From Mobula birostris (lineage: Eukaryota): a stretch of DNA of 64,000 nt. The stretch spans positions 30,348,424-30,412,423 of the forward strand of contig NC_092395.1 in assembly GCF_030028105.1 (NCBI RefSeq), written 5' to 3'. Below are positions 6,326-62,017 of this stretch, one piece after another (positions within the stretch are counted from its first letter, which is position 1; each line of letters begins with the position of its first letter). The notes beneath the pieces were generated by a model. The model had not been told where the DNA came from, ran no database searches, and worked only from the letters and a program-made list of their open reading frames with translations. Position numbers and translations under genes: made by a program.

Positions 6326-6334
6326 GGGCCAGCG

Positions 6335-16406: not shown

Positions 16407-16798
16407 CTAATGACATCCACAACTGCCAGCAACCATATCATCGTACTGTTTTAGGACCACATTTTCATCATCATCAAAGTACAGCAGGTTGATGGAGAAG
16501 AGTTTGTCTGGGATGCAGCAGGGAGTTGCAACACCATTAGTTAGCTTAAGGGCATTTATAATGGATTGGACGGTGGCGTGGTTGGTAGGTCTCATATTTT
16601 GCCCCAGTGGGAAAATGCATGCTCCTTTGCAGTGGTAGGCGTTGTAACCCCGAGGGGAGATGATCCAACCAGACCAGCCAATCTCTTCAAAATCCACATA
16701 AAGAGGATACCTCTGGCAGCCTTGCAAATTCAAAGATCTTGTGTTGCGACCCTGGCTTGCTTTATCGTGAAGTGTCACTTCCGAGAGAAATGGAGTCT
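16407..16798 (-). CDS. ADMP: ADMP exon 5: furin site and mature TGF-beta cystine-knot domain
   Basis: tttgccatag|(E)TPFLSE...RNTR/SLNLQGCQRYPLYVDFEEIGWSGWIISPRGYNAYHCKGACIFPLGQNMRPTNHATVQSIINALKL...CCIPDKLFSINLLYFDDDENVVLKQYDDMVAGSCGCH*. Seven cysteines; near-identical to the ADMP mature domain as I recall it. Spliced CDS 1128 nt, 375 aa. Minus-strand AATAAA at 16043-16048 and 16070-16075. Confidence 0.97.
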
Positions 16799-17184
16799 CT
16801 ATGGCAAAGTCAAAAGTTAACAATGTTATTAACAAAATCAAATCAAAATTATTACAGATGTCAATATATAAAGACATTAAGAACCTGAAGACTGTTGTGG
16901 TTTTAAGGGCAGCAGAACCTATTCTATGCATGTGGACCCACTGTAGATCTGTCTTTATGTGTGGATATATTACCTTGCTGATTTATATAATTTTATCATT
17001 TATTTACTTCTCAAGCAGATTGGAATTAGTTTTCCATTTAAACATTTGGATCCTGCTTTGCAGTATTTCGTCAAGTTAAATACAAAGCATCAAGTATACA
17101 AGTTAGAATAGCTATGGACTACTTAATCTGTTGAAGCTTTTCTAATATTTTCTCTGCTGGACATTATTTCCTTACACACTCCAT

Positions 17185-18150
17185 GTACACTTTACTCAAT
17201 GCATAAATGCATGCAGACATAGTCAAGAGGTTCAGTTTGTCATTCAGACCAAACATCAGATAGGAAAGAAATGTGATCTAAGTGACTTTGACTGTGGAAT
17301 GAGAGCTGACAGCGGCCACACCCTGCGCAACGGCCTCGACAAGCCGTCTAAACCAGGTGAGGGTAGCCAACGGGTCTCAAACCCTTGGTGAGATAGGGAG
17401 ATGTCTATCCCAGCATGTGAAGGCAGACTCCGGCGGATTGAGTGGATGAGACCCATGGAAGGTCCAATGGTCAAGAAGGCAGTCTCTGCAAGCGTCATGG
17501 AACATGTAGAACATAAGACACAGAAGACGTCCTGGTCATCCACTGCGCCTAGTCCCATCTCCAGCTGCCTTGACTCTGTCTTGCCACTGGATTCAAATGG
17601 GAATTGGGAAGAGAGAGTGAGGCTGACGCTGCGCAGCTCTCCCTCACTTAAATTCAAATCGTGCTCGGCTCGACACCATCAATAGTGTCGAGGTCTTCAT
17701 CGACGACGATGATGGACGAACACATGACTGTGGAATGATTGTTGGTGCCAGACAGGGTGGTTTGAGTATCTCAGAAACAGCTGATCTCCTGGGATTTTCA
17801 TGCACAGCAGTCTCTAGGGCAGGGGTTCCCATGCTAGGATCCACGGACCCTCGGTTAATGTTAGGGGCCCATGGCAAAAAAAAGGGTTGGAGAGGATGGT
17901 GCAAAAAAAAAACATCTAGTGAGCTACAGTTCTGTGGTCAGAAATGCCTTGTTAATGAGAGCGGTCAGAGGAGAATGATCAAACTGGTTCAAGCTGACAA
18001 GAAGGCAACAGTAACTTGAATAACCATGTGTTACAATAGTCGTGTGTGGAAGAGCATCTCTGAATGCACAGCACATTGAACCTTGAAGTGGATGGGAAGA
18101 CTATGAACATGCACAAAGTGGCCATTTTATTAGGTACAGGAGGTACAGTG
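17185..18150 (+). mobile_element. Tc1/mariner-derived non-autonomous element carrying nested insertions, in ADMP intron 4
   Basis: MIVGARQGGLSISETADLLGFSCTAVSR...LVQADKKATVT is a Tc1 transposase N-terminal remnant; homologous to 33257-33771 in the opposite orientation. Confidence 0.75.
17303..17724 (+). mobile_element. Retroposed insertion (SINE- or RTE-like) with a 14-bp target-site duplication
   Basis: tgactgtggaatga at 17289-17302 and 17725-17738 flanks a GC-richer segment ending in gacgacgatgatg. Confidence 0.7.
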
Positions 18151-19537
18151 TCTGCTAATAACACTGAGACTGGCAGTATGATGTGGACTGTGAAGAACTG
18201 TTTTAGAGCAGACTGGCAGTAAAACTGCTAATGGGGAAAATCTAGTACACGGTCTGATTCATCTGTTCAAATAAGAGACTGCAATCATCCTGTCAAACTC
18301 TCCAGTCTGTTGGATTGAGGATAACTTGCTTCCACTTAAGTGTTGTGGATTCTAAGACTAATGATGAGGCCAAAGTGGGAACCACAAACTGACATAGGGT
18401 CGAAGATTCCTGTCAGGCCAGGTGGGCAGGGCTAGTACACCAGTTATACTGTTTTTGTGTGGGTTCAGTGAGCAGCAGCCTGAATTCAGATACTCCTCAT
18501 CCCTCTCTTGCATTGGAATGTGGGCCACTGTTCAGCAAGTAGTAATATCCCTTGATTTTAAAACAGCTCCTTCTCAGTTACTGGTTTGGCAATGCCCTCT
18601 AGTGTTCATTGATATTGACTTTGTTTCTAATAATAATCTCTAAATCTTTGAATGTTAAACAAAATCACTGTTACATTACCATTCACTACTGAAAGCTACA
18701 ATTGTCTCCTCATCATTATTATTTGCTTTTCCACAGGCTACATTAGTTCACCAGTATATCACCCAACTAGTCTTTAATGTATAATGAATATTAATCTCCA
18801 ATTTGCTTCAAATTTCTGACAGACATATAATTGAAGTTTAAAGACAGTAGTCTGGGATATTAAGAGATTTATGAAAAAGTGAATTGAAAATATAAATGAC
18901 TTCCAAGGGCAAGGCAGAAGATGGAGGAGACGGGAGGATCTATCCTGTCATTGCAATAGTAGTCAGGAGGACAACTAATGGTTAATTGCAGTGCCCTCAG
19001 GCTGGTGACAGTTAGAGAAATTACTCTGCATGTCCAAACAAATAGTCCAGATTATGTTTCATCCTATAGAATCCAATATGCAGTTATACCTTAAGGCATT
19101 AAGTCAGCTAGTATATGAACCCTATGAACCATCAGGAGTTATGAATTAATCACAACTGTACGTAACTGAATGGGAATTTTATTCTCTAAAATGAACCTGA
19201 AGGAAGACTAGAGGGAACCAGTCTGACATTAAGCTAACTCATTGATGTACAGATCCAATGACAACTTTCTGTAAGAGCATCAGTACATCACTGTGGTAGA
19301 CTCTATACAAAATGCTGGAGGAACTCTTTGGAGAGGAATAAACAGTCAACATTTTGGGCCGGTACAGGACTGATAACGGTCTCAGCTCGAAACATTAACT
19401 GTTTATTCCTCTTCGTAGATGCTGCCCGACCTGCTGAGCTCCTCCAGCATTTTGTGTCTGTTATTCTGGATATCCAGTATTTGCAGAATCTCTTGTGTTT
19501 GTGATAGACTCTTTAGTTGTAGAAACTGAAGAATTAC

Positions 19538-19730
19538 CTATTGAAGAACTGGAGGTGGCAGTCCCTCTCCTTTCATCGTCTGTAAAGAGAACCACCATTG
19601 GATTTTTGCTACTGTGATGGTCTCTCCCAGTGGCAAAGTGGATGTAGTTATTGAGTTGCTCTCCAGCCAGGCCCTGCACACTGACAAGCAAGCCTTTGTT
19701 GCTATCTTTATCCTGTATCCAGTCATACAC
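19538..19730 (-). CDS. ADMP: ADMP exon 4 (prodomain)
   Basis: tgtag|VYDWIQDKDSNKGLLVSVQGLAGEQLNNYIHFATGRDHHSSKNPMVVLFTDDERRGTATSSSSI+G|gtaatt; 193 nt, phase 0 to 1. Confidence 0.93.
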
Positions 19731-20639
19731 CTACATAAATAAACAAAACTTCCATCAATCAAGTTCAGCAAGTGTTTCTGGCAGAATGAGATTCTTTCTG
19801 TTGTGCCTCATAAATTGCTTTTAGATTTTTGAATATTAAAGGAAATGAGAGATGGAGGGTTAGTATAGGAAAGCAGCCCTGAAGTCAAAGGTCAGTCGAA
19901 AGTCAGCCATGATCATACTGGATGATGAAGGGCTGAAGAGCAGGTATGAATGGCTGAATGACCTCCTAGCTCAATTTCTCATATTATTATGTTACCAGAA
20001 TGAGGTAGTGCTGAGTCTGATACAAAATAAATCTCCCTCAACCCAGTAAAAGTATGACTTAGTTCAAATTAACAGCTTTTTTAACTAGAGTATTTGGACA
20101 TCTCTGTCACAATTGATATTGGATGAAATTAAATGTTGAAATTTGTTGTGGCTCCATGTTGATTTAAAAATATACTGAACTGAATCCACCATTACTTCAA
20201 AAAACCTATTTTACATTTCATTGTTTTCTAATCCTGCTCAAGTTACTGTCTACTTGTAAAATTCATAATCCATCCAAACATCTGTAAGACCATGAATATG
20301 ACATCAGATGATGAGAGATGTTTCTGCTGTGGAGCTATGGTTGTAATTAGTTTTTAAATTAATCTACTGTGGCTCCCAGTCAGCCTGGCCTGCTTGTTTT
20401 CATTCAATTTCAGGGCACAAAATCCACCTTCTCCCTTGGGCCTACATACGAACCAATGCATTGCTCATTACACAGATGTGGATGGGGAACAGGAGCAGAA
20501 ACAGGTGAATGGCATCTCAAACCAGCTCCACCATTCAATAAAGTCATGGCTGATCCAGTTTCCCATGCTCTCTTCGTACTCCCTAGAGCCTCAGATGTAT
20601 GTAAATCTCCTCTGTGAACATATTCAATAACTCCAATCC

Positions 20640-22400
20640 CATAACTCTCGAGAGTAAAGAATCCCAAAAAGTCTTAGCCTTCTAAACTTTTTCACTGGTG
20701 TCTGAATTGAATAATCTCTTATGCTGAAATCAAAACTCCTTGTTCTAGATACCCCTACTAGAAGAAATATCCTCTCAATATCCACCCTGTCACACCCCTT
20801 CATAATCTTGTGTGATTCACCTTTCATCCTTCTAAGCTCCAATGAGTAGAGGCCAAACCTGCTCAACCTCCTCCGTGCGTCATCTGCGTCATCCCCAGAA
20901 TCAACCTAGTGAACGTACCTGCATTACCTCCATTGCACATTGATCCTTCCATAAATTTGGAAACCACAACTGTTTCCCCAGTTTGCAATAAAGTTACATC
21001 AAAACTATCTGACTTTTGTACACTGTACTCGTTTTAACAAAGGAAAAGATTCCATTCGTCTTTCGAATTATTAGCTGTACCGTTATAGCAACCCTTTGTT
21101 TCACACACTAACACCCCAATCCTTTTATACCCAACATTTTCTAGTCTAAATATATTGAAATAATCATTCAATATATCATTCTTCTTTTCAAAGTAGATAA
21201 ATTCATATTTCCCATGTTTCTGATTATCTGTCAACTTCATGCCACTCATTTAATCTATCTATCTGTGTCTAGACTCTTTGGATCCTATCACAAATTGCTA
21301 ACCGACTTACCTTCATGTGACCTGTAAATATGACCACAGTATATTTTGTTCCTTCATCACAAATAAGGATAATCGTTGAGGTCTCAGCCTTCATAGGTGA
21401 CACCCTAGTGGGTACTGATTACCAATCCAAAAACTTGCCCCAATTCTGTTTTCTGTTGGTTACCCACTCCCACTTCCATGGCAATATGTTAGCACCAACC
21501 CTGTGGACTTTTGTTTTATATAGTAAACTTTTATAGTTCTAAGTACATATATGTCACCATATACAACCCTGGGATTCATTTTCTTGCGGGCATACTCAAT
21601 AAATCCAATAACCATAATAGAATCAATGAAAGACTGCTTCAGTAGGGTGGACAACCAGCATACAAAAGTCAACCAAATGCAAACACAAAAAGAAAGAAAA
21701 AGTGAAATAATAATGATAAAAAAAAATCAGCAATGACATATTACTAAATGCCTTCTGGAAATCCAAATACAATTTACTGATTGCCTTTTATCCACTTTGT
21801 TACACCCTTAGTTTTGTCAAGCACACAAACGCAAAGTTCAGGAGACATGTCAAACTTCAGCCCCATTAAATCACTAAGTACATTTTATTTATTGATAGGG
21901 ATTGTTATAGATTGCTTCCTCCCTGTAGCCACTTGACTATTTCAATTGAGATGTCTTCCATGAAGACAGATTATATTTCCATTATTATTTCCCTAGTCTT
22001 ACACTTTAGCTGACCAATATTTATTTTAGCTGTTCTCTTCCTTTTAATATACTCTGTTTTAAATTTATTTTCTAGTTTACTCAAGAGCTTTATTTGCTCC
22101 TTCACAATTTCTTTATTCATTCTCCGCTTATTTGTAAGAAAAATTCTTTCCAATGCACATCTTCCTTCAATTTAACATTATCCTGAGCTTAATTAACTAC
22201 ATCCTTCTCACAGAGCCACTCTTCCTCACTGGTATAAATATTTATGAGATTTATCAAATTTCTTAAATATCTATCAATGTTAATCTACCATTTTATCCTT
22301 TCACATGTTTTGCTCAATTCCACTTTAGCCGACTGACCCTATTGTAATTACCTAGGGCATCCTTTAATATGAACTCATTAATTAACCCCATCTTATCAAT
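20640..22400 (-). mobile_element. Old, degenerate CR1 fragments in ADMP intron 3
   Basis: GLYSLELRRMKG...VDIERIFLLVGVSRTR; KRKRTAKINIGQLK..TREIIM. Confidence 0.6.
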
Positions 22401-22882
22401 AATACTATACCTAAAACAGCCATTTCCCTGGTTAGCATGACAAGGTATTGCTGCAAATCAAGCATCTAGTACTGTAATTGGCATGTGCTTAACGGCGCGG
22501 GCTGAGGTTGTGACACAAGTACTCCCCATAGTTCTAAAGTGACTCTGTATAATCTTCTGCAGGTATATGGGTACTGTGCAGTTATTCCTGTAATTATAAC
22601 AAGGATAAGTTCAATTATTGCCACAGGTATTACTGTCTTTTGACGTATTTACAACCAACGCTGACTAGTTTTGTTGGTTTAACAAGAGTTAAATGGCTAA
22701 CACAGGCATTATGGGCCAAATAGTCTTCTGTATTGTATTATCCATTAATTTTGTCAAGAGCTGGTATGGATACTAAATATGTTACAGCAGAAATTATGGG
22801 CATTCGCCATCAGTAATGGAAACCATGTAGTTATACATGCCATACAGAAACTACAAATATTATTTCTGTTGAAGACACTTAC

Positions 22883-23002
22883 AGCATTAGTGATTGTGAA
22901 GACCTCCCATGTGCTGTCATGGACTGGAAGTACTCTGGTTGACAATAATCTTTTCCCTTTTACTGTTGACGTGCTATTGTCCAATATCTGGTAGACACTA
23001 AC
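22883..23002 (-). CDS. ADMP: ADMP exon 3 (prodomain)
   Basis: tttctcag|VSVYQILDNSTSTVKGKRLLSTRVLPVHDSTWEVFTITNA|gtaagt; 120 nt, phase 0 to 0. Confidence 0.95.
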
Positions 23003-25019
23003 CTGAGAAAAGAGATTACAGTTCAGACAAGTTGCAACATCTAGTCCTTTGAAAATAAACTCACATGACTTTTGAGATAGACTGAGTGCATGGCACATTT
23101 CCTTCCGACCTAAATGGGGGAGAAACTTATTGGAATCAGGTTAATTATCACTGACATATGTTGTGAAATTTGTTGTTTCACGGCAACAGAACAGTGCCAG
23201 ACAAAAATAACTATATGTTACAAAAGGAAATAAGAGTGCAAAATATGGTAATGAGGTAGTGTTCATGGGTCATTAAGAAATCTGGTGACAGAGGACAAGA
23301 AGCTGGTCCTAAAACATTGAGTGTCCAAATTGTCTTGGACATTGAGGTGGCTTCAGGATTCCTCCCTCCTACCTACCACTATTTTGAATTTCCAAGCCAT
23401 AATGTTTCATTGGCGGATAAAATCTCAGAGTTATAATTAATGCTAGGGCTGAGCTAAGGTATTCCTCAAAACTTAGTTTCTTGTTTCTGGCCTTTTACTC
23501 AAACTCCATGATAAGGAATGTCCTACGTGGGTACAAATGGGAAACTACACATGATGGTGTGCCTGATTCATTTTAACCTTGGCAGGAAATTTGTGTAGTT
23601 ATAGGCAATCACATTGGTACACATTGTAATATGCATATAGCAAAAATCAGTTTAAACGGTTAGGATCCAAACAAGTGCCAATTTGTATCCTATATTCCTC
23701 ATGGTATGACAAAGTCTAAACCATCCATCATTCTCAAATATTAGACATATGGCATGTTTAACAATAAGAACATGATACTTTGGGACAAAATCAGAATTAA
23801 CCTTAATGATATAAAATGTTTGCTATCAAGTAGTCAGTCGATTTCTATTGCAAGTGATTGCTTGACAGGTTTTTTTTTACCATTTTTTGAATTATTATAC
23901 AAAAATAAAATTACTACATTCCTGTACCTTAAAAATGAATTCAAAGGCACAGAAATGTATAGAACATGTTCCAGTATGGTTATTTTTTTTAATTACAATA
24001 AAGTGCCAGAGATATTATTCTTTCAAAGCATGGGCTTATCATAATGTCATTTTGAACCAGTGTGATTGCAGGGGAACAGTGAGTGTGACTTTCTAATCTG
24101 GAGAGGAGTTATTGGTCCACAGAGAGGGCATCCCCCAACCTAATGGCTTTCTTCATAAGGTCTTATCGAAAGTGGCTGCAGTGTTAATGGGTACATTAGT
24201 TGTAATCAATTACAATCCCCTGGGTTCTGGAGGGAACTGGAGAACTACAAAAGTAATGCCACACTTCAAGGCCAGTTAGCCTACCTGTTGTAGTATCATC
24301 ACTAACTACAGCCACTTTGTTCAATTCAAAAGAGAAAATGCTGGAAAAACTCAGGTGTTCAGGCAGCATCTGTGGAAAGAAAAAGTCGAGGTTTTGTAAC
24401 CTACTAAGTTTTTCCAGTATATTCTGCTTTTACTTCAGATTTCCAGCATCTGGAGATTTTTTCCCCCCAAATCAAATCTGCAATACTCACAGGTCCTTGG
24501 TCACCCATTGTCATGGCTTGAGGGTTAGTTGTTGCATGATTCGGTAAGACCAATACGTTGTGTCTTCCGCCTCTGTGTTTTCCCTCACCTGCATAGCAGT
24601 TATTTCTGCAGCTGTTCAGCAGCCACCATTGCCCCGCTGACCCACTTCCCAGTGATCAGTGGGGCAGTGGCGTGACAATTGCTAGGGCTTACTGCAGCTC
24701 CCTCAAAGCTCCTGTTTTCTCTGATTACCCACACACCAAATCTTTCACTTCTGCTTTTTTTCCTTTCTGGGTTTCTTTGTAATGCAGTCTCTCCATCTGT
24801 GTGCAAAAGACCTTTTAACAGATTTTTGCCCAATTTCAGTATTTTTGTGCAGGATTGGAGTGAATTCAGCAGGACAGAGGAGAGGGTCCAACTTTTAGGC
24901 ATAAACATCTGACATTCAAAAGACATATAGAAGCTAATAAAAATAATCAAACAAAATTGTTATTTATTGCCTTTTAAACAATTATCTAAATACATTCACA
25001 CCATTTGAAACAGTTCCAA

Positions 25020-25400
25020 GAGCAGGGACCACTTCATCAAGCACCTCCGTTCTATTCGCCAAAAGTGGAACTTCCCGGTGTCTGCACTCTGGCCTTTATC
25101 TCTTCTCACCTGCCTTTCACTTCCCCCTGATGGCCCTCCTCCTATGGTCCGCTCTCCTCTCCTATTACATTCCCTCCTTTCCAGCCCACCTGATTTACCT
25201 ATCACCTTCCAGCTATCCTCCCCCCCCCCCGCACCCCCAACCTTTTTATTCTGGAGTCTTCCCCCTTCCTTTCCAGTCCCGATGAAGGGTCTCGGCCGGA
25301 AACGTCGACCGTTTATTCAGCTCCATGGATGCTGCCTGACCTGCGGAGTTGCTCCAGCATGTTGCTCTGGATTTTCCAGCACCTGCCCAATTTCTTGTGT
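25020..25400 (+). mobile_element. Penelope-like element fragment in ADMP intron 2
   Basis: Same pyrimidine-rich body, with a mutated hammerhead-like end: ccgatgaagggtctcggccggaaacgtcgac. Confidence 0.65.
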
Positions 25401-26052
25401 TAACGTTTAACATTTGTTCTCCATGGATTTCAACAGAAGGGAACCCTCTGTACCGGGTCTCTGAGTGTAGTTCCCAGTCTCAAGGTTGCAAACTGTAAAG
25501 AAATTCAGCTGCAAAATAATTACCTGCAAGACCCATAACTAAACTTTACATAAGTTTGAAGTAGCTTTATGCTCGGATGCCCTGAGGAGAAACACACTAA
25601 CAAATTCACCCACCTGGGTATCACATTTAAAACCATGCAACCTCTTCTCGACTTTCGCTTTTTTTCTCCAATTCCTTACTTTTTTCTCTCTCTGTTTATT
25701 CCTAAATGTACTTTATCTTAATGTCTGCTATTCGCCTATTTTTCTGGGATTCTTTCAGCGTTTTCTGTAGCAGAACCTCTGCCTCGGTTTTCAGCCCCTG
25801 TGCCCCGCACCACCCACCTCTCTCACTCGAGACTGTGGATGCTGGAATCCAGGCGTCCACATGGAAGAGTCTCGTCCCGAAACATCGACTGAACATCTCT
25901 CACCACCTCCGACACACAGGGGCTGCCTGACCACCGAGTTCTTCCAGGAATATTGCTTTTGCCCTCTCGCTCACCCTGTGTCAATGCAGGTTCGCAGGGA
26001 GAAAGAGGCTGCGGGAGGGAAAGGATGGACAGAGGCGACAGACACTTCTTAC

Positions 26053-26195
26053 CTGACAAAGGTGGTGCTTATGCTGCCCAGGATCCTGGGACGGGCGACC
26101 CCGCAGTTTGAAGAGATGCAGCTCGGCGGTCAAGATCGTCTCGCTCTTGGCCACGCTGGACAGGTTGAAGAAGAACATGAACTGCTGATTACGTG
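26053..26195 (-). CDS. ADMP: ADMP exon 2 (prodomain)
   Basis: ctttcctcag|(A)RNQQFMFFFNLSSVAKSETILTAELHLFKLRGRPSQDPGQHKHHLCQ|gtaag; 143 nt, phase 1 to 0. Confidence 0.95.
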
Positions 26196-26295
26196 CTGAG
26201 GAAAGCAAGCATATAAAGCGTAGAGGTCAGTGGAGCCGGAGGTGGCCGGGAACAGTCCCTGAGCGCCGGGCATCAGCAGGGAGAAGGACTCTCAC

Positions 26296-26575
26296 CTCTA
26301 TCCAGGAAGCTGCGCACCGTGTTTCCCACCAGCAGGTCGGGCTCTTTGGTCACCCCGTCCGCATCTGCCACCGTGTTGTACAGGTCCAGCATGTACTGGG
26401 GAGGTTGGCGTACCTTATGAGGCGCCGGCGGCGCATCTTCCATCCCGAACACCTCCAACAACCTCTTAAGTGCCTTGGACCGTATCTGTTGGCTCTGGCC
26501 GGGCAGGCTGGAGGTGTTACCCGGTCCCGAGGACACGAGCAGGAGAAGCAGCAAGGCACCGGCACCCGGGCGCAT
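26296..26575 (-). CDS. ADMP: Anti-dorsalizing morphogenetic protein (BMP/TGF-beta family), exon 1: signal peptide and prodomain start
   Basis: gccATG context; MRPGAGALLLLLLVSSG signal peptide; ALKRLLEVFGMEDAP...QPPQYMLDLYNTVADADGVTKEPDLLVGNTVRSFLDR; donor G|gtgag (phase 1); 280 nt. Confidence 0.95.
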
Positions 26576-41103: not shown

Positions 41104-41244
41104 TGTTCCGCCAGTGCATTATGCAAACCAGCCTCATGATGCCCAAGACTTTTGGAAGGGTTTACTTTTGCTGCACTGCATTATCAGTCTAGGCATCTTA
41201 CATCTGGTACTGCTTTCGTAGTTGGTGCATTATTTCCTTGCTCA

Positions 41245-41404
41245 TCATGAGGTTGTCCGGTGGCACTTACAGGATTTGATAGTATAGATGTTCCTGATCT
41301 TTCCATGTCTGTTCATGATTGCATGAATTTCATATTCCTGAGGAGAGTACCCATTGGATGAGCCATCTTCCCAAGCCACACATTGGTCACTATTATGCCT
41401 GTCC
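41245..41404 (-). pseudogene. pnhd: pinhead last coding exon
   Basis: tttttacag|(R)DRHNSDQCVAWEDGSSNGYSPQEYEIHAIMNRHGKIRNIYTIKSCKCHRTTS*; the phase-2 start fits the previous exon; terminal CxC. Confidence 0.9.
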
Positions 41405-43061: not shown

Positions 43062-43120
43062 CTTCGGAGACACCCACTTCCTGCAGTACACACTCCCAAA
43101 CATCTGCCAACATCGATTTC
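43062..43120 (-). pseudogene. pnhd: pinhead exon (EIDVGRCLG)
   Basis: tgtttcag|EIDVGRCLGVCTAGSGCLR+AG|gtaagc; 59 nt, phase 0 to 2. Confidence 0.9.
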
Positions 43121-43229
43121 CTGAAACATTAGCACAACAAAGAGGCGCAGTCACTTCAGAAACCTGAGTAGGAACAGCAGCCAGGCACTGAGCAAACGGT
43201 AGCAGCTGAGTAATTAACACCTGCAGTAC

Positions 43230-43411
43230 CTTGAGCTCCTCTTCCTTCTCACCCCTGGAGTTAATGGTGATCACATAGTAATACTCCACATGGGGCAGTC
43301 TGTAGCAATTCTCTCGCACCTCCCATGATTGCACAGTCTGAATAAGCTCCAAACCATGTGGACTGTCCAGCACAACTGAGTCAAATTCAGTGGGTACACA
43401 TCTCAAACCAC
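43230..43411 (-). pseudogene. pnhd: pinhead exon (CVPTEFDS...CYRLPHVEYYY)
   Basis: ccctgtag|xGLRCVPTEFDSVVLDSPHGLELIQTVQSWEVRENCYRLPHVEYYYVITINSRGEKEEELK|gtactg; 182 nt, phase 1 to 0. Confidence 0.9.
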
Positions 43412-43964
43412 CTACAGGGAGCTAAACAGAGCAAGGCTATAAAAATGGCTTCTCTCAGTGACGCTTTATGAAACTCTGTCCATGAAGCTTCACTGAGGAG
43501 AATTGCTCGGACACTGATCACCACATCTCAAACTACAGCCCCGTTGTTCTCAAAAGCAATGAGCACCGCCCACGAGAACTGTCCTTTAACCATATTGGTG
43601 ATACAAGTTATATGGGAGGGCTTGCAACTGTTGATTCATTTATTCTTTAATTTGCACAATTTGTCTTCTTTTGCATTTTGGCTGTCAGTCTCTGTTTATG
43701 CATGCTTTTTTAAAATAAAATCTGTTGGATTTCTTTCTCTTCGTGAAAATGCCTGCAAGGAAATGAATCTCAAGATGTATATCACACAAAATGCTGGAGG
43801 AAATCAGCAGGCCAGACAGCATCTATGGAAAAAGTACAGACAACGTTTTGGGCCGACAATTTTTTTCCATAGATGCTGCCTGGCCTGCTGAGCTCCTCCA
43901 GCATTTTGTGTGTGTTGCTTTGACTTCTGGCATCTGCAGATTTTCTCTTGCTCAAGATAGTACA

Positions 43965-44575
43965 AGAAAGCAGACTACGCTCTGTCCGCCAGAGAAAGCA
44001 GGATCTCCCAGTGGCCACACATTTTAATTCCACATCCCATTCCCATTCTGACATGTCTATCCACGGCTTCCTCTACTGTAAAGATGAAGCCACACTCAGG
44101 TTGGAGGAACAACACCTTATATTCCGTATGGGTAGCCTCCAACCTGATGGCATGAGCATTGACTTCTTTAACTTCCACTAATGCCCCACCTCCCCCTCGT
44201 ACCCCATCCGTTATTTATTTTTATACACACATTCTTTCTCTCTCTCTCCTTTTTCTCCCTCTGTCCCTCTCACTATACCCCTTGCCCATCCCCTGGGTTC
44301 CTCCCCACCTTGTCTTTCTCCCTGGGCCTCCTGTCCCATGATCCTCTCATATCCCCTTTGCCAATCACCTGTCCAGCTCTTGGCTCCATCCCTCCCCCTC
44401 CTGTCTTCTCCTATCATTTTGGATCTCCCCCTCCCCCTCCCACTTTCAAATCTCTTACTAACTCTTCCTTCAGTTAGTCTTGATGAAGGGTCTCGGCCTG
44501 AAACGTCAACTGTACCTCTTCCTAGAGATGCTACCTGGCCTGCTGCGTTCGCCAGCAACTTTGATGTGTGTTGTT
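43965..44575 (+). mobile_element. Penelope-like element 3' fragment
   Basis: QDLPVATHFNSTSHSHSDMSIHGFLYCKDEATLRLEEQHLIFRMGSLQPDGMSIDF; the hammerhead core is mutated to TTGATGA. Confidence 0.82.
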
Positions 44576-47500
44576 TTACCTTTGCTTTAATCATTTTCTA
44601 GAAGTTAGACAGCTTAGTCTTGACTATAGGACTAACCGTCACCTCCCTACCTTTCTCAGCTGACTTGGCCACCCCTCCCCCTGTATTCTCGTTGATTCCC
44701 CGGTTTTAGGTGTGCCGAATCCCAGTGGTATATTAATGATGCTGAATTAGGCATGTTACTGGAAGAGATGTAGTCTCGTCTGCCGTTGATCTCCTGTGCT
44801 TCATGTTGCCATATAATCAACCCTCCACCCTCAGGCCCGAGATAACACACGGGCATGTAACAATACTCATTAACAATACTCTGTGCTAATTTCTGAAGAA
44901 ATCAACAATGTGCGCCACTGATGCCCTCACACCACCACCCTCCACAGTGACAAATGCTGCTCTAGGCTTTGTTCTACGCAGACATCAGCTAGGTTTTAAC
45001 CCACAGCTAACTTGGGCGATTGGACCAAGGGTTAAAATCGACCCACTGAGCCTGTATGCAGATTATGGGATGAATTTACACACAAGAACTTAACAGTGGT
45101 GTTTCGGTATTGGTATTTTCTATGTGACGTCTGGGTTACATCTCTATTTAACGTATTGGAATGCTTCCATGTAATATTTCAATGGAAAAGTCTCAGTGTG
45201 CCATTGTAGTATTTCCACAGTAGTGCAGTGGTTAGCACATCGCTTTACAGTACCAGGGACCTGGGTTCAATTCCCACTGCTGCCCGTAAGGAGTTTGTAC
45301 GTTCTTGCCGTGATTGTGTGGGTTTCCTCAGGGTGTCCTGGTTTCCTCCCACAGTTGGTCATTGTAAATTATCCCGTGATCCCGTGATTAGGTTAGGATT
45401 AAATTGGGGGCTGTGGGGGGAGGGGTTGCTGGGCAGCACGGCTCAAAGTGTCAGAAGGGCCTATTCCACTGTGTATCTTAATCCCAATCCATCAGTCAAT
45501 AAATAAATAAATCAATACTTCTATGTGATGTATTGTGCGGTGCTGCCTTGTAGTATTGCCAGTATTGCCTTACATTCCCTCAGTATGTAGAGTGTGTAAC
45601 CACGAGACATCTCTGGATAATGTGCTCTATTTATGCTGTGTTGTACCTTGGAGTGGTTTGGTCTGGTTTCACAGTGTGAAATTTCCATGTGGTATCCCAT
45701 TGTCTTCAACATGTATCTGAGGGTTTGTATAATGTCTTGGTAAGTGGACAGGCAGCTATCTGGAGCAAGAGTTTAAATAATAATGGGGATACTAAATAAA
45801 GAAGCAGCTTTTCAGCCTAGTTTTTCTGTTGGTTAAGTACAGAACCTCACCTTCTACCTCGTTATGAACTGGCACCTTATTATTTAACTGCACTTTGTTA
45901 CTGTTACCTTTTATTCTGCATTGTTATATTTCACCTTGTTCTACCTCGATGCACAGTGTAATGATTTGATCTGTATGCGAGACAAGCCTTTCACTGTATC
46001 TCAGCACACGTGACAGCATTAAGCCAATTCCATAAGACCATAAGCAGCATTAGGCTATTTGACCCATCGAGCCTGCTACACCATTCGATCATGGATGATC
46101 CTTTCAAAATCTACTTTTTATTTTCCCCTTTAACTCCCATTCTCCCCATAACCTCTGACACCCTTACTAATGTAGATCTATCAACCTCTGCTTTAAATAT
46201 ACCCAATGACTTGGCCTCCATAGCCGTCTGTGGCAATGAATTCCACTGACTTACTTCCCTTTAGCATTCCAATTGAAAATTTAAATCCAATTCTATATTT
46301 TCTGCAACATCTTTTCTCTTTACAATTGAATAATGAAATAGCTGTTGCCCGTGAAGCATGCAAATCTCAGAAATTAACCAGGATGAAGCATTGTTAATGC
46401 AGAGCATAAAACCTGTGAGAAAGGGACCCCCTGGGAAATGCACCCCGGTTAGCAACGCAGTAAGACTGAAAAGGAATAACCCAAATCTGCATCTGCAGAT
46501 TCTTTCTCGTTAGCGAGAATTCCACATTTATCGACTACAGAGCAGAGCAAAAGCCGGCATTGTCAGGCAGCAGGAGATAAAGGAAAGGAGGGCTGATGGT
46601 GGTCTGTGACCAGCAGAAAGAAAAGTCGACACGAGAACATTTTGTGAGGGTGAGGAGTGTCAAAATTGGTGGAATGGGGTGGGGCTCTGATGAGTGATCA
46701 AGACTGCCCTGTGTCAGATCTTCTAAGCAGTGCGGGAAACAGTCCGTTACATAAAACACAAACATGCTTTACACGGCAATTTTATTACCATCTTCATTGG
46801 CTAGATGGGTAAGTATTAACCTGCCCAAACTGACCCTGAAGTAATTGGCTCTCTGGGGCTTTGCAGAGGGCAGTTAGAACCACATTGATGTGAGTCTGGA
46901 GTCGCATAAAACCCCCAAACTGGTTAGGGCGGCAGATTCCTATTTCTGAAAACACTGGGGACAAGGGTGGGGTTTTTACAATAATCTGTCAACTTCATGG
47001 TCACCGTTGCAACAACATTTTTTTTTAAATTAGAGGTTTATTCAATATTTGAATTTGACTCCCTTGGCTGCTATCTTGAATTTGGACTCCATCCTCCAAG
47101 TCTCCAGATCTCTGGACAAGAGTGCAATAATTTAGCCTCTATCCTACGTTGGGTGCAACAATCACCATTCCCAGTTCTGTAACATTGTAAAACCTGGGGA
47201 TTGGGAATAAATCTCCCTCAACCCACTGCCCATCACCTCATTATGCAGTGTCTATGTGCTGGGTAATGGAGGTGTTTATTTCCTTTCCTTGTACAGACGG
47301 TAGCGGGATCTTTACAACTCTTTAGATGCAATCACAGGCAATCAATATTCTCCTTGTGAAACCCTGGGCAATTAACACTGACCAGACAGAATCACAGAGA
47401 TATACAGCACAGGGACAGGCTCTGTCGAGGAAATGATTTTGTTGTCAGTACATCAAAAACTAGGGTTTATAGATACAAATTACTTTCCAATGGGGAACCC

Positions 47501-48170
47501 AGGAGAATTTTTGTTTGCACAGAGAGTGGTGTGAATGTGGATCATGTTACCATAAGGAATCATTGCGGCGAAGAGCATATTTGCATCCAAACAGAAACCG
47601 GAGAAGTTGCAGCGAGGGTGTTACACTTGTGGTGTTCGATGCAGGTGGGTGGGAGGAGCTTCGTGTGTTGTCTAATTACTCAATGCACCAGTCGAGTGGA
47701 GACACCACGGCTGAGGCTCACACCGGGAGCAACAATCAAAAGGAACTCAACAGCATCTCTGAAGCGAAATGGGCAATTGACATTTCAGGCCGAGATCACA
47801 ATGAATGGTCTTGACCTGAAACGTAGAGTTCCTCTGGCAGGTAGATTGCTGCACCAGTAGAAGGATGGGTTCATTCCTGAAGAGTTCCACATAATTCTCA
47901 TTTTCTTGCTTTAAATAAATGCACTTAGGCCTGTATAGTGCAGAATGTTAGACTTGATTATCATTGTTTTCACCCCCTCTAGTTGTGTGGAGTTGCCACC
48001 TCCACACTAATATTCAGCTGGGGTCTGCCAAAAAGCTCCTCACCAGAAGTGTTCTAACCAATGGTAACTGACCAGAAATATTAAGTCAGCTTCTCTACTT
48101 GTCAATGTTGCCCAACCTGTTGAGTTTGTTTTTTCCTTGGCATCATCTGTTTTATTTCTGTCTTCCATAA

Positions 48171-48683
48171 AGGCTGATTTATACTTCTGCGTCAAATTGA
48201 TGCTATAGGTACGGCATAGCCGCGAACCCTACGCAGTGCCTACGCGGATCCCTATGCCATAGCCTGACGTGCACCTCTCCCAAAATGTAACTACGCGTTG
48301 CGGCAACGCAGACCGCAACAACTGTGAGTGGTCCACTTGGTAGCATCGCATTTCCTCCTACGCTGCAATAGCTTCCCACTGGGCGACTGAAGGGCAGGAA
48401 GGAACTCTGGCTGCAATGCTTTCCATAAAGATTTACAGACCTTCGAAATTATGGAGGGCACATTTCACTTTTACGAAAAGAGACTCCCGCTTCAAACTTG
48501 TTTACCCGGAGAAAGACTACCGTGACCATGAAACCTGGCACAGGCAGGTGTGTGCACATGTGTGACGTGCGCGAATTGCAGAGCGACGCAGACACACCAA
48601 TGCACAAGTATAAATGCTCAGAACGGCATTGCCCACTTTCGTAGGCTACGGCGCAAGCTTGACACACAAGTATAAATCAGCCT
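48171..48683. mobile_element. PIF/Harbinger-type MITE
   Basis: Terminal inverted repeats aggctgatttatactt ... aagtataaatcagcct, flanked by TAA on both sides. Confidence 0.85.
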
Positions 48684-49884
48684 TAAGACGATGACTTGCA
48701 GGACCAGGATCAAGCCATTCAGCCCAATCGAGTCTGCTCCTCCACTTGGTCATGGCTGATTTAGTTTCTCTCTCAACCCTTTTCATCTACCTTCTAAAGA
48801 GCAAATGAAAAGCTAGCAGGACAATTTCCATCATCAATAACGAGCACTTGAGCGTCAAAACATGTTGCTGAAGCATTTACAGCTATTTTAAGGTTGAAGT
48901 GCTCGTCCATCTTGACTTCCTTTCAAAGTTTCCCCAGCAACAGGAGTGGGTATGCAACCAATTGGATTAACTACTTCACACGACATTAAAAAAAAATCAG
49001 CAAAAGCTACAGGACAGGACAACATATAGATGGAAAAGCTGTGCTCCAGAAGAAGCCATATCTCTAGCCAAGCTGTTCAAACTCAGTCAATCACACAATT
49101 TCAATTTACTCAGAAGCATGAAAAGTTATCCAGCTTTATCCTATTCCAACACCTGACTTTCGCCATATTCAGAAGATAAATCCAGGGGGATCTATAGAGT
49201 TAGGGAAGGTTTCTTATTTCCTGTGTAACACTTTCACACTTAAGCAAAAATATTCAACTCTGTTCATCCCGAAATCCACTTCCATACTTCAGGCAGCTAC
49301 AGAGTTAAATTATGCAGGAAACCTGAAATTAATGTGCAAAACGCCAGGAAGTCTCTGCAGGTCAGGCAATAGGTAAGGAGACAAGAGTCAGCATTTAAGT
49401 CATTGACTTTCAGAGGAGGACTAGGTTCAAGCTGTGGAAACAAATGCCTGCCAATCCTGTCACAGGCAATTCTCTTTAAATACTTACATTTCTCCTTTCC
49501 TTCGTGACAGCTGGGAAAGAAAGTCTGAGCAGCCCAAGGGAGGAGAAAGAGATATATGTTTTAACTATCTACAAAAAGGGAAATCTACTCCACTGGATGT
49601 GAGTCAGCAGAAAGCCTAAAGCATCTTTCTCCTTGCTCCATGTACCATGTATTGAAGATGGGCTGGCTGAGCTCCAACATGCTCATGCTGAAAGCTACCC
49701 TCCTTCCTCCACCAGCCTCCTATCTGCTCATCCATAATTCTCAAGATTTGTGAATGAGGAGAGTCTTTCCTCAAGGCTGGAACAGAAATAAGAGGTTTTC
49801 TTGGGCTTCTGCACAGGGTCTTGTTCTTTCAGCCCATCAAGTGCATAGAGGTTCTGACTGAAGTGATTCCATCAATCCTCTAGA

Positions 49885-50600
49885 GTTATAGAGCTCAGAA
49901 GCAGGCCCTTCAGCCCATCTAGTACATGGCAAACTGTTATTCTGCCTAATCCCATCAATCTGCACCTGTACCATAGCCCTCCAAACACCTCAAATCCCTG
50001 TACTTATCCAAACTTCACTTAAATATTGCCATCAAACCTGCATCCACCACTTCTGCTGGCAGCTCGTTCCACCCTCTCACTGCCCTTTGAGTAAAGAAGA
50101 TCTGCCTCAGGTTCACCCTTTATCTTTAACCTATGACCTCTATTACTAGTCTCACCCAAGCTCAGTGGTAAAAACCTGGTTGCATTTACCCTTTTGTCCC
50201 TCATAATTTTGTATAAATCTATCAAGTCTCCCCTCACTTGCCTACGCTCCCGAGAATAAAGTCCTAACATTCAAACTTCCCCTATAACTCAGCTCCTCAA
50301 GTTCCAGCAATTTTCTCTGTACTCTTTCAATCTTATTGATATTTTTCCTGTAGGTAGATGACCAGATTGGGCACACAATATTTCAAATTTGGTCTTATAA
50401 CAACTTCACAATAACATCCCAACTCCTGTACTCAATAGTCCAAGTTATGAAGGCCAGAGTGCCGAAAGATCTCTTTATGACCCTATCTACCTTCAAGGAA
50501 TTGTGGATCTGTATTCCTCGATCCCTCTGCTCTACTCCAGTCCTCAGTATCCTACCATTCACTGTGAATGTCCTACCCTAGTTTGTCCTCCCAAAGTGCA
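49885..50600 (-). mobile_element. CR1 LINE 3' fragment
   Basis: LGLYSRERRQVRGDLIDLYKIMR...RGHRLKIKG. Confidence 0.8.
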
Positions 50601-50874
50601 GTCCCATCTTTCCCTCATTACCACTTCGTGGTATCTCTCGTGCATATGTCCATTAACTCCCTTTTGATTTGCCATTAACTGTTTTAAGGAATAATTTACA
50701 GTAGCCGATTACCCCACGGGGGATGGAAGTAGGAACCCTAGGCCCCAGGAGGGGAAACCCATGTGGTCATGGACAAGTTCAACATAGACAGCAGCTGAGG
50801 TCAGGACTGAACCAGGATCAACACTCCCTAGGTTTCTACTACTTGTATCTATGTCCTACTCTTGTTGGCCCATC

Positions 50875-51136
50875 TCAAAGTGCATCTCCTATTTATCCGG
50901 ATTAATGTTAAAGGCTTGATGGGTAAATTGAGTGGGCCATTCAGTACCCGACTGAAAGGCAGCACAGTCTCGAGGAAGTTGAATAACCTAATTTCACCCC
51001 TATTACACCCTGAAAATATTTACGCGCATTCTCCACTGTTTAAGGTTCTCAACTCTAAACATAGAGGATTTGAACAAGAGGGTCCTCCTGGTGCCAAATT
51101 TCATCTTCCACTCCACAGAAATATTCTGCAGGTTTC
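50875..51136 (-). pseudogene. pnhd: Decayed central pinhead exon remnant
   Basis: After ttttttaag the frame reads ETCRIFLWSGR*NLAPGGPSCSNPLC. A shifted frame then reads VENARKYFQGVIGVKL...*MAHSIYPSSL*H*SG*IGD. These resemble Pinhead PSC...C, ERxxLFxGxxEVEV and FPxSxxExxIDVGxC in the right order. Stops at 51103-51101, 51022-51020 and 50943-50941. Confidence 0.5.
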
Positions 51137-51194
51137 CTTAAAAAATACTCATTAGTTTGAATATTAAATATTTTATGTGAAAATAATAAATCAC

Positions 51195-51337
51195 CTCACA
51201 TATCTGGAGTTGTTCCAGCACCCAGAGATGTTTGGAGAATCCAAAAATTTCAAAGTTGCAACTTGCTGATTGCCGGTTACTACCACACTGGGAGCCACAC
51301 TTTCCAATATCCACACTGATTGGACTGCGGGAGATAT
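51195..51337 (-). pseudogene. pnhd: pinhead exon (DISxSPISVDIGKC)
   Basis: ttttcctggcag|(D)ISRSPISVDIGKCGSQCGSNRQSASCNFEIFGFSKHLWVLEQLQICE|gtgatt; 143 nt, phase 1 to 0. Confidence 0.88.
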
Positions 51338-52314
51338 CTGCCAGGAAAATATGGTATCTTTCCAAAAGTAAAGAGGCAGCAACAGTTACATTTTAATCAA
51401 AGGAGAACTAAGAAGTCTATAAATAAAAGCACCATTGCAGAAAAACTTGAGTCACTGTAAATCTTAACAACGTACAAGAAATCTGAGGTAGAAGGAGTAA
51501 TAGGCTAGACCGGAGAGCCAGAGACAGCGTCAGGAACAAGACTCTTGGCCGGGGAGAAAATGCACAGTACAAGACAGAGTGAGTTGGTGTGAAAGAGGCA
51601 GGACAAGAGGGGGTAAAGGATGAGACTGCATCAAGCAAAGAGACTCAACCAAAGAGAAGGAAACAGGGAGGGGGGGGGAGAGAAAGAGGGCGATGGTGAG
51701 CGGGTAGCATTTAAAGAGAGAGACAGCACGAAGCAGTAGCACGGCAGCAAACGAGTCTGCAGTGTTCTGAAATGTATGTATGTACATTTGTAGAACCAGG
51801 CTTATCATTGGAGGACTTCGGCCCTGTCACTGGTGGTTTATCCAATCCTATGCAGTTTTTATATGCTGTTTATTCAGCCTTCACAATCTATTCCAAAAAA
51901 TCTCTGATTGCTCAACCCAATTTTTGGCCCTGACCCTTGTTATGATTCTTGACTCTTAACCAGAATCTTCCCTTCCTTTGTCCCCTAAGGCTTTAACTTC
52001 CTTCAGGCACTCCACATGAACAGGCCTCGCACGACTGAATTTACAACTGATCATAAGTGCAAAAGCATAATTCATAGTCAAATCATTCAAAACCAATAAA
52101 TTACCAAGCATTTGGTTTCACTCCCTCATATTGCAAATAAAGTACTCCTGAAGTGAGTTAAGAGAGTTCAATCTCACTAGGGGCCACTTCAACCACTTTG
52201 CACTAAAATGGACTTTGTTTTCTTTCTAATTGTGTTTTCTTAAAAAAATGAGAATATGTGCCTGTGATGCAGGTGCAGGCAAGCTTTTTATTGCACCTAT
52301 ATACACATGTTCTT

Positions 52315-55035: not shown

Positions 55036-56273
55036 GATAGAAAATAGATGCAGGAGTAGGCCATTCGGCCCTTCGAGCCTGCACCGCCATTTATTATGAT
55101 CATGGCTGATCATCCAACTCAGAACCCCGCCCCAGCCTTCCCTCCATACCCCCTGACCCCCGTAGCCACAAGGGTCATATCTAACTCCCTCTTAAATATA
55201 GCCAATGAACTGGCAACTGTTTCCTGTGGCAGAGAATTCCACAGATTCACCACTCTCTGTGTGAAGAAGTTTTTCCTAATCTCGGTCCTAAAAGGCTTCC
55301 CCTCTATCCTCAAACTGTGGCCCCTCGTTCTGGACTTCCCCAACATCGGGAACAATCTTCTTGCATCTAGCCTGTCCAATCCCTTTAGGATCTTATACGT
55401 TTCAATCAGATCCCCCCTCAATCTTCTAAATTCCAACGAGTACAAGCCCAGTTCATCCAGTCTTTCTTCATATGAAAGTCCTGCCATCCCAGGAATCAAT
55501 CTGGTGAACCTTCTTTGTACTCCCTCTATGGCAAGGATGTCTTTTCTCAGATTAGGGGACCAAAACTGCACACAATACTCCAGGTGTGGTCTCACCAAGG
55601 TCTTGTACAACTGCAGTAGTACCTCCCTGCTCCTGTACTCGAATCCTCTCACTATAAATGCCAGCATACCATTCGCCTTTTTCACCGCCTGCTGTACCTG
55701 CATGCCCACTTTCAATAACTGGTGTATAATGACACCCAGGTCTCGTTGCACCTCCCCTTTTTCTAATCGGCCACCATTCAGATAATAATCTGTTTTCCTA
55801 TTTTTGCCACCAAAGTGGATAACTTCACATTTATCCACATTAAATTGCATCTGCCATAAATTTGCCCACTCACCCAACCTATCCAAGTCACCCTGCATCC
55901 TCTTAGCATCCTCCTCACAGCTAACACTGCCACCCAGCTTCGTGTCATCCGCAAACTTGGAGATGCTGCATTTAATTCCCTCATCCAAGTCATTAATATA
56001 TATTGTAAACAACTGGGGTACCAGCACTGAGCCTTGCGGTACCCCACTAGTCACCGCCTGCCATTCTAAAAAGGTCCCGTTTATTCCCACTCTTTGCTTC
56101 CTGTCTGCTAACCAACTCTCCACCCACACCAATACCTTACCCCCAATACCGTGTGCTTTAAGTTTGCACACTAATCTCCTGTGTGGGACCTTGTCAAAAG
56201 CCTTCTGAAAATCCAAATATACCACATCCACTGGTTCTCCCCTATCCACTCTACTAGTTACATCCTCAAAAAA
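55036..56273 (-). mobile_element. 5'-truncated CR1 inserted antisense into the plus-strand CR1
   Basis: Uninterrupted frame from EFFEDVTSRVDRGEPVDVVYLDFQKAFDKVPH through FADDTKLGG to the ORF2 stop, followed by the 3' UTR. Confidence 0.92.
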
Positions 56274-57209
56274 TTCTTTAGGTATGTGAAGAGGAAAAGA
56301 ATAGTTGAGACCAAAGTTGGGCCCTTGAAGACAGAAACGGGTGAAATTATTATGGGGAACAAGGAAATGGCAGACAAGTTGAACAGGTTCTTTGGATCTG
56401 TCTTCACTAGGGAAGACACAAACAATCTCGCAGATGTAATAGTGGCCAGAGGACCTAGGGTAACAGAGGAACTGAAGGAGATTCACATTAGGCAGAAAAT
56501 GGTGTTGGATAGACTGATGGGACTGAAGGCTGAAAAATCCCCAGGGCCTGATGGTCTGCATCCCAGGGTACCTAAGGAGGTGGCTCTAGAAATCGTGGAC
56601 GCATTGGTAATTATTTTCCAATGTTCTATAGATTCAGAATCAGTTCCTGCAGATTGGAGGGTAGCTAATGTTATCCCACTTTTTAAGAAAGGAGGGAGAG
56701 AGAAAACAGGCAATTATAGACCAGTTAGCCTGACATCGGTGGTGGGGAAGATGCTGGAGTCAATTATAAAAGATGAATAGCGGCACTTTTGGATAGCAGT
56801 AACAGGATCGGTCCGAGTCCGCATAGATTTACGAAGGGGAAATCGTGCTTGACTAATCTTCTGGAATTTTTTGAGGATGTAACTATGAAAATGGACAAGG
56901 GAGAGCCAGTGGATGTAGTGTACCTGGACTTTTAGAAAGCCTTTGATAAGGTTCCACGTAGGAGATTAGTGGGCAAAATTAGAGCACATGGTATTGAGGG
57001 TAGAGTACTGACATGGATAGAAAATTGGTTGGCAGACAGGAAACAAAGAGTAGGGATTAACGGGTCCCTTTCAGAATGGCAGACAGTGACTAGTGGGATA
57101 CCGCAAGGCTCGGTGCTGGGACCACAGCTATTTACAATATACATTAATGATTTAGATGAAGGGATTAAAAGTAACGTTAGCAGATTTGCAGATGACCCAA
57201 AGCTGGGTG

Positions 57210-58165
57210 TGTCATGGTTCGGTCCGTGAAATCTGTATTCCGGTTCACTGTCCGGTCCATCGACCCTTGCTCCAGGTTTTCCTGTCTACCCTGTTTCTGT
57301 TCTTGTTGAGCTCTAATTGAGTCAGCTGATGCTCATTGGGGCTGGCTGCATAAATACCTTCAGAGACCAGGGCATGGCTGCTGTATTGTTCTTGTCCTTA
57401 CTCCTTGTATCCCTTCCTCTGCCTTCTGTTTCCTCGCCTGAAACCCTGCCTTGTCTTGCCGATAACTCTTGCCTCGCCTTGCTTTGCCAGAAGCCTTGCC
57501 TTGTCTTGCCGGTAACTCCCACCTCACCTGAAGTTCTCGTCTCGCCTTGCATTGCCTGAATCCTTGCCTTGTCTTGCTGGTAACTCTCGCCTCGTCTCGC
57601 CTGCAGTCTTGTCCTGGAGCCACCCTGTACCTAGCTCCCTTCCTGTCCCTTGCCTCCGCCCAGGTAAGCCAGGCCATCTTGCCATTACCTGCGGTTGGTT
57701 CTGTCCCTTCCAGTCCCATGCCTCTGTTGGGTGGTGATCCGCGCCCTGCCCAGGAGTACCGCGCCCTGCCCAGGAGGAGCCTGCCTAGCCTCAAGCCTGA
57801 AGACTCCAGCCTCCTGCCTAGCCTCAAGCCTGAAGACTCCAGCCTCCTGCCTAGCCTCAAGCCTGAAGACTCCAGCCTCCTGCCTAGCATCAAGCCTGAA
57901 GACTCCAGCCTCTTGCCTCCTGCCAAGCCTCATCCTTGCTTAGTCTTGGGGTCCGAGCCAGAGGCAAGACCTAGGCACTGAGTCCTTGTCCAGTCTCTGG
58001 CTCGGAGTCCAAGCCCAGGCTCCTAGCTCTTTTGTCCAGTCCTGTTCCAAGTTCCCGGTTTTTGTGTCCATGTCCTTGTCATCACCCTGTATCCTAGTCC
58101 TGTCCCTAGTACTTCAGTGTCTGTGTCTTGCACTTGGGTCCGTTCCCAGACACGTCCTTATGACA
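57210..58165. mobile_element. Solo LTR (probably Gypsy-type), 956 bp, 5-bp target-site duplication GGGTG
   Basis: TGTCAT...ATGACA termini; gggtg at 57205-57209 and 58166-58170. Removing it restores the CR1 sequence aagctgggtggcagtgtgaaatg. Confidence 0.88.
57781..57912. repeat. 33-bp minisatellite, 4 copies, inside the solo LTR
   Basis: ctgcctagcctcaagcctgaagactccagcctc at 57781, 57814, 57847 and 57880. Confidence 0.93.
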
Positions 58166-59687: not shown

Positions 59688-59777
59688 CTTTTCCAATGAA
59701 GACAAAGTGAGGGAGTCTCCTGCAGCAGGGTCTCTCTTTAAGCCCAAAACTCCGGTGGTCTGTCAGAATTCCAGCAT
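59688..59777 (-). pseudogene. pnhd: pinhead exon (CCRR motif)
   Basis: ccttctgcag|(D)AGILTDHRSFGLKERPCCRRLPHFVFIGK+G|gttaga, compared with Pinhead CCRRxSHFxYIGxD. An alternative same-phase acceptor lies at 59760. The exon is absent from the ORF track. Confidence 0.82.
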
Positions 59778-61947: not shown

Positions 61948-62017
61948 CTGTGGGAGCAGCGTAGTAGCTGCTGAGGACAGTAAATAGACAGGAGGCTCTT
62001 TCAGTCAGTCGAGGCAT
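61948..62017 (-). pseudogene. pnhd: Candidate pinhead first exon (weak signal peptide)
   Basis: ATG CCT CGA... gives MPRLTERASCLFTVLSSYYAAPT+G|gtaatt. The phase-1 donor fits the next exon and it lies in non-repeat sequence, but there is no diagnostic homology. Confidence 0.35.

Follow-up and report, generated by a model that had tools for sequence, protein, structure and literature searches.

The pinhead gene (pnhd) of Mobula birostris, as it stands in the 64,000-nucleotide stretch of contig NC_092395.1 analysed here (hereafter the window), is probably a unitary pseudogene of recent origin, without a functional protein product. Like other unitary pseudogenes, it is a single copy at the syntenic site, with no other copy, a probable disabling change and apparently relaxed constraint; unlike typical ones, its surviving exons still contain neither stop nor frameshift. 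The preliminary description of this DNA had proposed that the Pinhead protein was lost while ADMP stayed intact, and this is supported by the loss of two cysteines (Cys220 and Cys290), by a nonsense codon in a relative, and by the intact ADMP gene. Gene loss as such is an ordinary kind of event. According to PMC6989304 and PMC8188501, Pinhead and ADMP form a pair, mutually compensating or antagonistic, by which dorsoventral patterning is stabilised; if Pinhead is dead here, one member of this known signalling pair would have been knocked out naturally.

The pinhead locus lies upstream of an intact ADMP gene

The exon at 43409-43231 (minus strand) is 100% identical to the annotated pnhd of M. 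birostris and shares 71-83% identity with six shark pnhd proteins, with E values of 1.7e-23 to 3.8e-18, a sequence homology that supports its status as an ortholog. The gene lies directly upstream of ADMP, 14.7 kb away and also on the minus strand. This order, pinhead then admp on the same strand, is common to other chordates, including zebrafish, Xenopus and Ciona (PMC6989304); the arrangement is the same here, but in the window ADMP alone is intact. Three of the five ADMP exon alignments are 100% identical to the M. birostris protein, and the remaining two differ by 2-3 residues in alignments that overrun the intron edges. Six pnhd exons survive (S1 to S6), all open and flanked by GT/AG sites, with phases that are compatible except across the long intron between S3 and S4. 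The features are as follows:

61948..62017, minus strand: S1, with the ATG, the signal-peptide region and a phase-1 GT donor (tblastn with protein P0007 from residue 1, E 0.005)
59688..59777, minus strand: S2, open, with a CC motif and AG/GT sites (tblastn, HMM and genome-wide search)
51195..51337, minus strand: S3, open, first half of repeat unit 1 with CxxxC; phase-0 donor after 51195
43230..43411, minus strand: S4, open, starting in phase 1, with Cys220 replaced by Trp and an alternative AG acceptor at 43421
43062..43120, minus strand: S5, open in the window genome (tblastn match)
41245..41404, minus strand: S6, the last exon, with the stop codon and Cys290 replaced by Tyr (tblastn match)
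45647..45700, minus strand: first exon of the NCBI model XP_072099965.1, with no match among other Pinhead proteins
16407..26575, minus strand: ADMP, five coding exons, intact; exon starts near 26575, 26193, 23005, 19730 and 16796

The NCBI model of M. birostris pnhd (XP_072099965.1, 154 aa) corresponds to S4-S6, to which it is identical. It differs from the gene described here in that it lacks S1-S3, opens with an unrelated exon at 45700, which is possibly a prediction patch, and assumes a protein-coding locus.

The Pinhead proteins of sharks (Mustelus asterias XP_078054856.1, Pristiophorus japonicus, Scyliorhinus, Carcharodon) have 322-336 aa and are homologous to the window gene exon by exon, in the same order, at 53-90% identity. 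Compared with them, the window gene lacks a central stretch of about 90 residues, six invariant cysteines among them, has lost Cys220 and Cys290, and has a weaker signal-peptide core. S1 has as many codons as the shark exon, but its best 9-residue Kyte-Doolittle mean is 1.84, against 2.99-3.29 in three sharks and a median of 2.78 across 81 orthologs, values that measure hydrophobicity only and do not come from a signal-peptide predictor. No Pfam family was found for four Pinhead proteins. The predicted structure of shark Pinhead (mean pLDDT 77.5) shows three strand-rich repeated units; a Foldseek search with it gave no match at E 0.001 or better, and its PDB matches, weak at E 0.011 or worse, are mostly cystine-knot growth factors.

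The central block is missing from the gene and from the assembly

Alignment with sharks places about 90 residues between the counterparts of S3 and S4, and these are absent from the following intron:

43412..51194, minus strand: 7.8-kb intron without the central block; the missing block corresponds to residues 102-191 of P0004, with six invariant cysteines

The preliminary description had put the missing stretch at about 80 aa; its absence holds, and its size is nearer 90. In the predicted shark structure, the block straddles two units, taking in the latter half of unit 1 and the first half of unit 2. We found no trace of it in the window by tblastn (E up to 100), with HMMs built from 116 orthologs or by frameshift-tolerant profile alignment, and it is not on any of the 4715 contigs of the 4.0-Gb assembly. 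A genome-wide search with the full shark protein recovered five of the six surviving exons, including one of 20 residues, and gave no match to query positions 100-182; the central piece used alone as the genome-wide query had a best E of 0.95. There is no second copy of pnhd elsewhere in the genome by this search, only the single copy at the syntenic site. The claim that no intact replacement exon lies in 43412-51194 is thus borne out by tblastn, HMM, frameshift-tolerant alignment and the assembly-wide search.

We confirmed that S3 (51337-51195) ends in phase 0 and that S4 begins at 43411 in phase 1. The phase-0 GT donor of S3 occupies the position orthologous to that of sharks, and an alternative phase-1 GT follows 51200. 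Joining the two exons directly was said to give an immediate stop, which is correct for the pair 51195/43411, a join that is out of frame, but not as a necessity: four other donor/acceptor pairs give an open frame. Two of them are acceptor 43411 combined with the GT that lies 5 bases upstream of the S3 donor (exon end 51200), and the orthologous donor 51195 combined with the AG acceptor 43421; the latter acceptor is used in NCBI's M. birostris model. An immediate stop is therefore no proof of gene loss, given these open neighbouring joins. The converse idea that nothing is missing and merely the wrong donor was chosen is excluded by the shark alignment, with its roughly 90 absent residues.

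The central block was likely deleted outright rather than decayed in place. The window contains no N, and at least 24% of the intron consists of repeats. We searched the contig joints and loose ends over the intron for a deletion breakpoint and found none among the rows listed, in which repeats dominate; no assembled contig from the sequencing runs laid on the window bridges the whole of 43412-51194. One contig of a relative (relative D, see below) fits 47442-48023 and continues with 352 letters unlike the window, which makes window position 48023 a candidate for the place of the deletion, or else for an insertion specific to that relative. The same intron holds, at about 48170-48685, an element of about 500 bases with inverted ends that is present in high copy in the sequencing runs compared; it is likely a non-autonomous DNA transposon.

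The sequence beside S3 scores at background level

The region just downstream of S3 had been described as a recognisable remnant of the central exon, bearing stops and a frameshift:

50875..51194, minus strand: proposed remnant; single-copy intron DNA with a background-level score, collinear in relative B

This identification was not confirmed: the region scores at background against random intron tiles, and none of the tests gave a significant result. Scored with the central-block profile, the region was equalled or beaten by 159 of 200 random tiles; the corresponding figures are 24 of 192 with BLOSUM scoring and 9-91 of 370 across ten gap settings. A nucleotide-level profile was equalled or exceeded by 19-130 of 370 tiles, and gave the region 16-19 bits against 102-196 bits for true exons. 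Simulated remnants with up to 0.5 substitutions per site were all detected, 40 of 40 at every divergence tried, an optimistic figure as the remnants were simulated from the detecting profile itself.

The stop triplets quoted for the region (51103, 51022 and 50943) are present in the sequence. They also lie in real, shared sequence, because relative B is collinear with the window over 50571-51683, with a 5-base gap at 50628 as the sole exception. Since the region scores at background and simulated remnants are detectable, the supposed stops and frameshift are most likely ordinary intron sequence, and not exon lesions as had been claimed.

The surviving exons show signs of decay at the protein level

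Cys220 and Cys290 are invariant in all 84 aligned orthologs and are replaced by Trp and Tyr in the window gene. Counted over the whole protein, 6 of 20 conserved Cys columns are absent and 2 substituted, so that three complete cysteine-rich units are not present; within the surviving exons, 12 of 14 such columns are kept. We defined conserved columns as those that are 95% conserved in 110 non-cartilaginous orthologs and common to sharks. Seven of 49 are changed in the window pnhd, against 1-3 in each of six sharks; two of the seven lie at the end of S3 and are variable in sharks too. For ADMP only 2 of 167 are changed, one of them an exon-edge artefact (pnhd versus ADMP, Fisher p 5e-4). No stop, frameshift or splice-site lesion was found in the six surviving exons of the window.

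We placed the assembled contigs of four sequencing runs on window positions 41150-51700. Relative B (run X5, from another study) is about 1.9% diverged from the window, and relative D about 5.7%. Relative B has an Arg codon turned into a stop in S5 (43066), Cys226 changed to Arg (43307) and Leu to Phe (43346) in S4, and a His to Arg change in the last three exons. Each of these differences is carried by one contig per site at a depth of 14-16, the stop by one contig at depth 16 in one run. All four coding differences listed for the last three exons alter the protein, a count from which synonymous differences may be hidden; the chance of four out of four is 0.28 under neutrality and 0.002-0.04 at an omega of 0.1-0.3. 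Relative D shares none of the four. Its contig over S4-S5 differs from the window 29 times, against 47 expected on the basis of its remaining contigs (P 0.003), and this region was therefore under constraint for some of the time. In three organisms, the unique stretches of the intron are collinear. Run X9, possibly of RNA, yielded a single unspliced piece across the S4-S5 intron and not one splice joint.

Relative-rate comparisons show pnhd evolving faster than in sharks (p<0.05 in 13 of 15), and ADMP is faster too, with a significant difference between the two genes in just 1 of 15; on these sequence comparisons, the acceleration of pnhd is partly lineage-wide. About 65-75 sites in the surviving exons would be disabling if hit. 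In the absence of selection, the 701 coding bases would remain free of stops, frameshifts and splice lesions with a probability of 47-52% at 1% divergence, 10-14% at 3%, and 0.0005-0.002 at 10%. Recent loss had been offered as one reason for the kept splice sites, and the probabilities at 1-3% divergence make it a sufficient one: with a recent lapse of selection, these sites need no further cause. The lapse is likely recent, around or after the split from relative D. A single ancient loss for all batoids was considered too and is disfavoured by the open exons, given the probability at 10% divergence.

Alternative explanations for the state of the locus

The same exons might encode a shortened but working Pinhead of two units and about 235 aa, in which the first half of unit 1 is fused to the second half of unit 2. 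Such a protein could be made through the in-frame joins at adjoining splice sites, every surviving exon being open with canonical sites; the deletion measures about one repeat length, the block being the end of one predicted unit and the start of the next, and conservation of the exon region is raised in relative D. The cysteines speak against it. Cystine knots pair their cysteines as C1-C4, C2-C5 and C3-C6, and by this rule Cys67 and Cys71 would be left partnerless, with Cys151 and Cys153 deleted and Cys220 changed to Trp. Moreover, unit 3 has no Cys290, and relative B carries a stop and the loss of Cys226. We consider a working short form improbable; rays may instead have passed through such a form earlier on.

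Two other readings concern the intron itself, and both strike us as very unlikely. One is an assembly artefact in which the central exon or exons were lost by collapse at an intron repeat. Contigs do break at each repeat, both in the possible source run and in relative B, and none spans the intron, but the window holds no N, the block is on none of the assembled contigs, the unique intron parts agree in three organisms, and the decay in the other exons is independent of the gap. The other reading is in-place decay of the central exon, which would have stood at about 51125-50860 and would now be an extremely old remnant. The 266 bases that lie there between an AG with a branch-point-like motif and a GT come close to the roughly 268 expected; short matches to shark residues are scattered through the region, and under the most lenient gap setting a weak tail signal appears, 50875-51194 ranking 9th among 370 tiles and 6th among 400 shuffles. 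Yet the intron contains 17 AG/branch/GT arrangements of this kind, and an alignment anchored at the splice-like sites is matched by 31-69 of 392 tiles. Decay in place would also need at least 0.7 substitutions per site, while the flanking exons retain 53-74% protein identity to sharks.

Under the preferred reading of a recent unitary pseudogene, a deletion inside the 7.8-kb intron would have taken out the latter half of unit 1 and, with it, the first half of unit 2. Selection on the protein would have ended late, at some point in about the last 1-5% of sequence divergence along this lineage, so that the remaining exons would not yet be expected to contain stops or splice lesions. The loss may have been tolerated through compensation by ADMP and BMP feedback, by analogy with zebrafish.

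Relation of the pinhead locus to ADMP

In zebrafish, maternal-zygotic pinhead mutants are reported to be normal, with admp up-regulated, and double mutants to be dorsalised (PMC6989304); a loss of Pinhead is therefore plausible while ADMP is kept. Xenopus pnhd morphants are reported to show defects (PMC8188501). Pinhead thus appears dispensable from the zebrafish mutants and needed from the Xenopus morphants, and a lineage without Pinhead but with ADMP would favour dispensability over evolutionary time. The part of PMC11226491 concerned with Pinhead names it as an ADMP regulator and says nothing further.

A possible addition to the pseudogene reading is that the protein is dead and the locus is kept, transcribed or as an enhancer carrier, for the control of ADMP in cis. 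Transcription of pinhead is reported, second-hand in PMC6989304, to control admp in cis in Ciona; in such a switch, transcribing pinhead would repress the admp gene of the same chromosome, the two being expressed in complementary domains. In the window the pinhead-then-ADMP tandem order is retained, the splice sites are all canonical, and the 109-base intron after S4 (43121-43229) provides a weak hint: its 5' part, when translated, matches a Chiloscyllium (bamboo-shark) read-through at 14 of 17 residues, and on this resemblance may represent either an extended-exon isoform or a non-coding element that has been conserved. However, recent loss alone predicts kept splice sites, and repression by transcription would presumably need neither splice sites nor open exons. 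Cross-regulation in zebrafish is described as running via BMP/Smad feedback on each gene's own enhancer (PMC6989304), and Itoh et al. remark that their result conflicts with the Ciona model (PMC8188501). We therefore view retention for cis-control as doubtful.

Pinhead in other cartilaginous fishes and in birds

Seven batoids have an annotated ADMP protein (Hemitrygon, Hypanus, two Mobula, Pristis, Leucoraja and Narcine). The only batoid Pinhead among the matches listed in protein searches (the best 7 of 9 and the best 120 of 191) is the M. birostris fragment; a further search gave 47 cluster representatives without names. The pnhd models of the carpet sharks Chiloscyllium plagiosum (P0009), C. 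punctatum (P0010) and Hemiscyllium ocellatum (P0291) are truncated, with 107-140 aa. All three have Arg where Cys226 is otherwise invariant, a substitution also found in relative B, and the Hemiscyllium model additionally lacks Cys262. Stegostoma and Rhincodon have ADMP and no Pinhead match among those listed. These gaps in batoids and carpet sharks rest on annotation, and absence from annotation differs from absence of the gene. From their sequences, the carpet-shark models possibly reflect a second, independent decay.

We lean slightly towards the view that cartilaginous fishes lost the Pinhead protein repeatedly, in rays and, as a separate event, in carpet sharks, with ADMP kept. That such repeated loss went together with retention of the dead locus as a transcribed cis-regulator of ADMP seems to us quite unlikely; if true, it would be a natural separation of the protein role of Pinhead from its chromosomal role. 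A literature search, with subscription journals mostly outside its coverage and supplements excluded, gave no report of pinhead loss in rays or sharks. Skate and bamboo shark are laboratory embryo models, and if other rays and carpet sharks have lost Pinhead, their embryos could be compared with those of the catshark, which has a full-length gene. This comparison would show whether ADMP expression has changed and whether pinhead transcription outlasts its protein.

Outside fishes, pnhd is listed among the genes lost in warm-blooded vertebrates (Korotkova et al., PMC6871517). That case differs from the window, where the gene body stays readable and ADMP is kept. Full-length Pinhead-like proteins occur in several birds (P0087, P0089, P0107, P0110, P0143 and others), and the listed loss is therefore not valid for all birds. 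Among the matches of the ADMP search were ADMP-like bird proteins labelled BMP2. To our knowledge, ADMP too is absent in mammals.

Other features of the window

Judging from its translation, 6251-6709 (plus strand), convergent with ADMP, is presumably exon 1 of a POLE4-like gene. In some bird models (P0021, P0054, P0108) POLE4 is fused to exons of pinhead, which suggests that the POLE4-pinhead neighbourhood is conserved. From its translation, we take 670-1044 (minus strand) to be an exon of a NIM1-like kinase. Intron 2 of pinhead contains a reverse-transcriptase-like open frame of 488 codons belonging to a LINE (55119-56585, minus strand) and, at 57780-57918, a 33-base tandem repeat in 4.2 copies.
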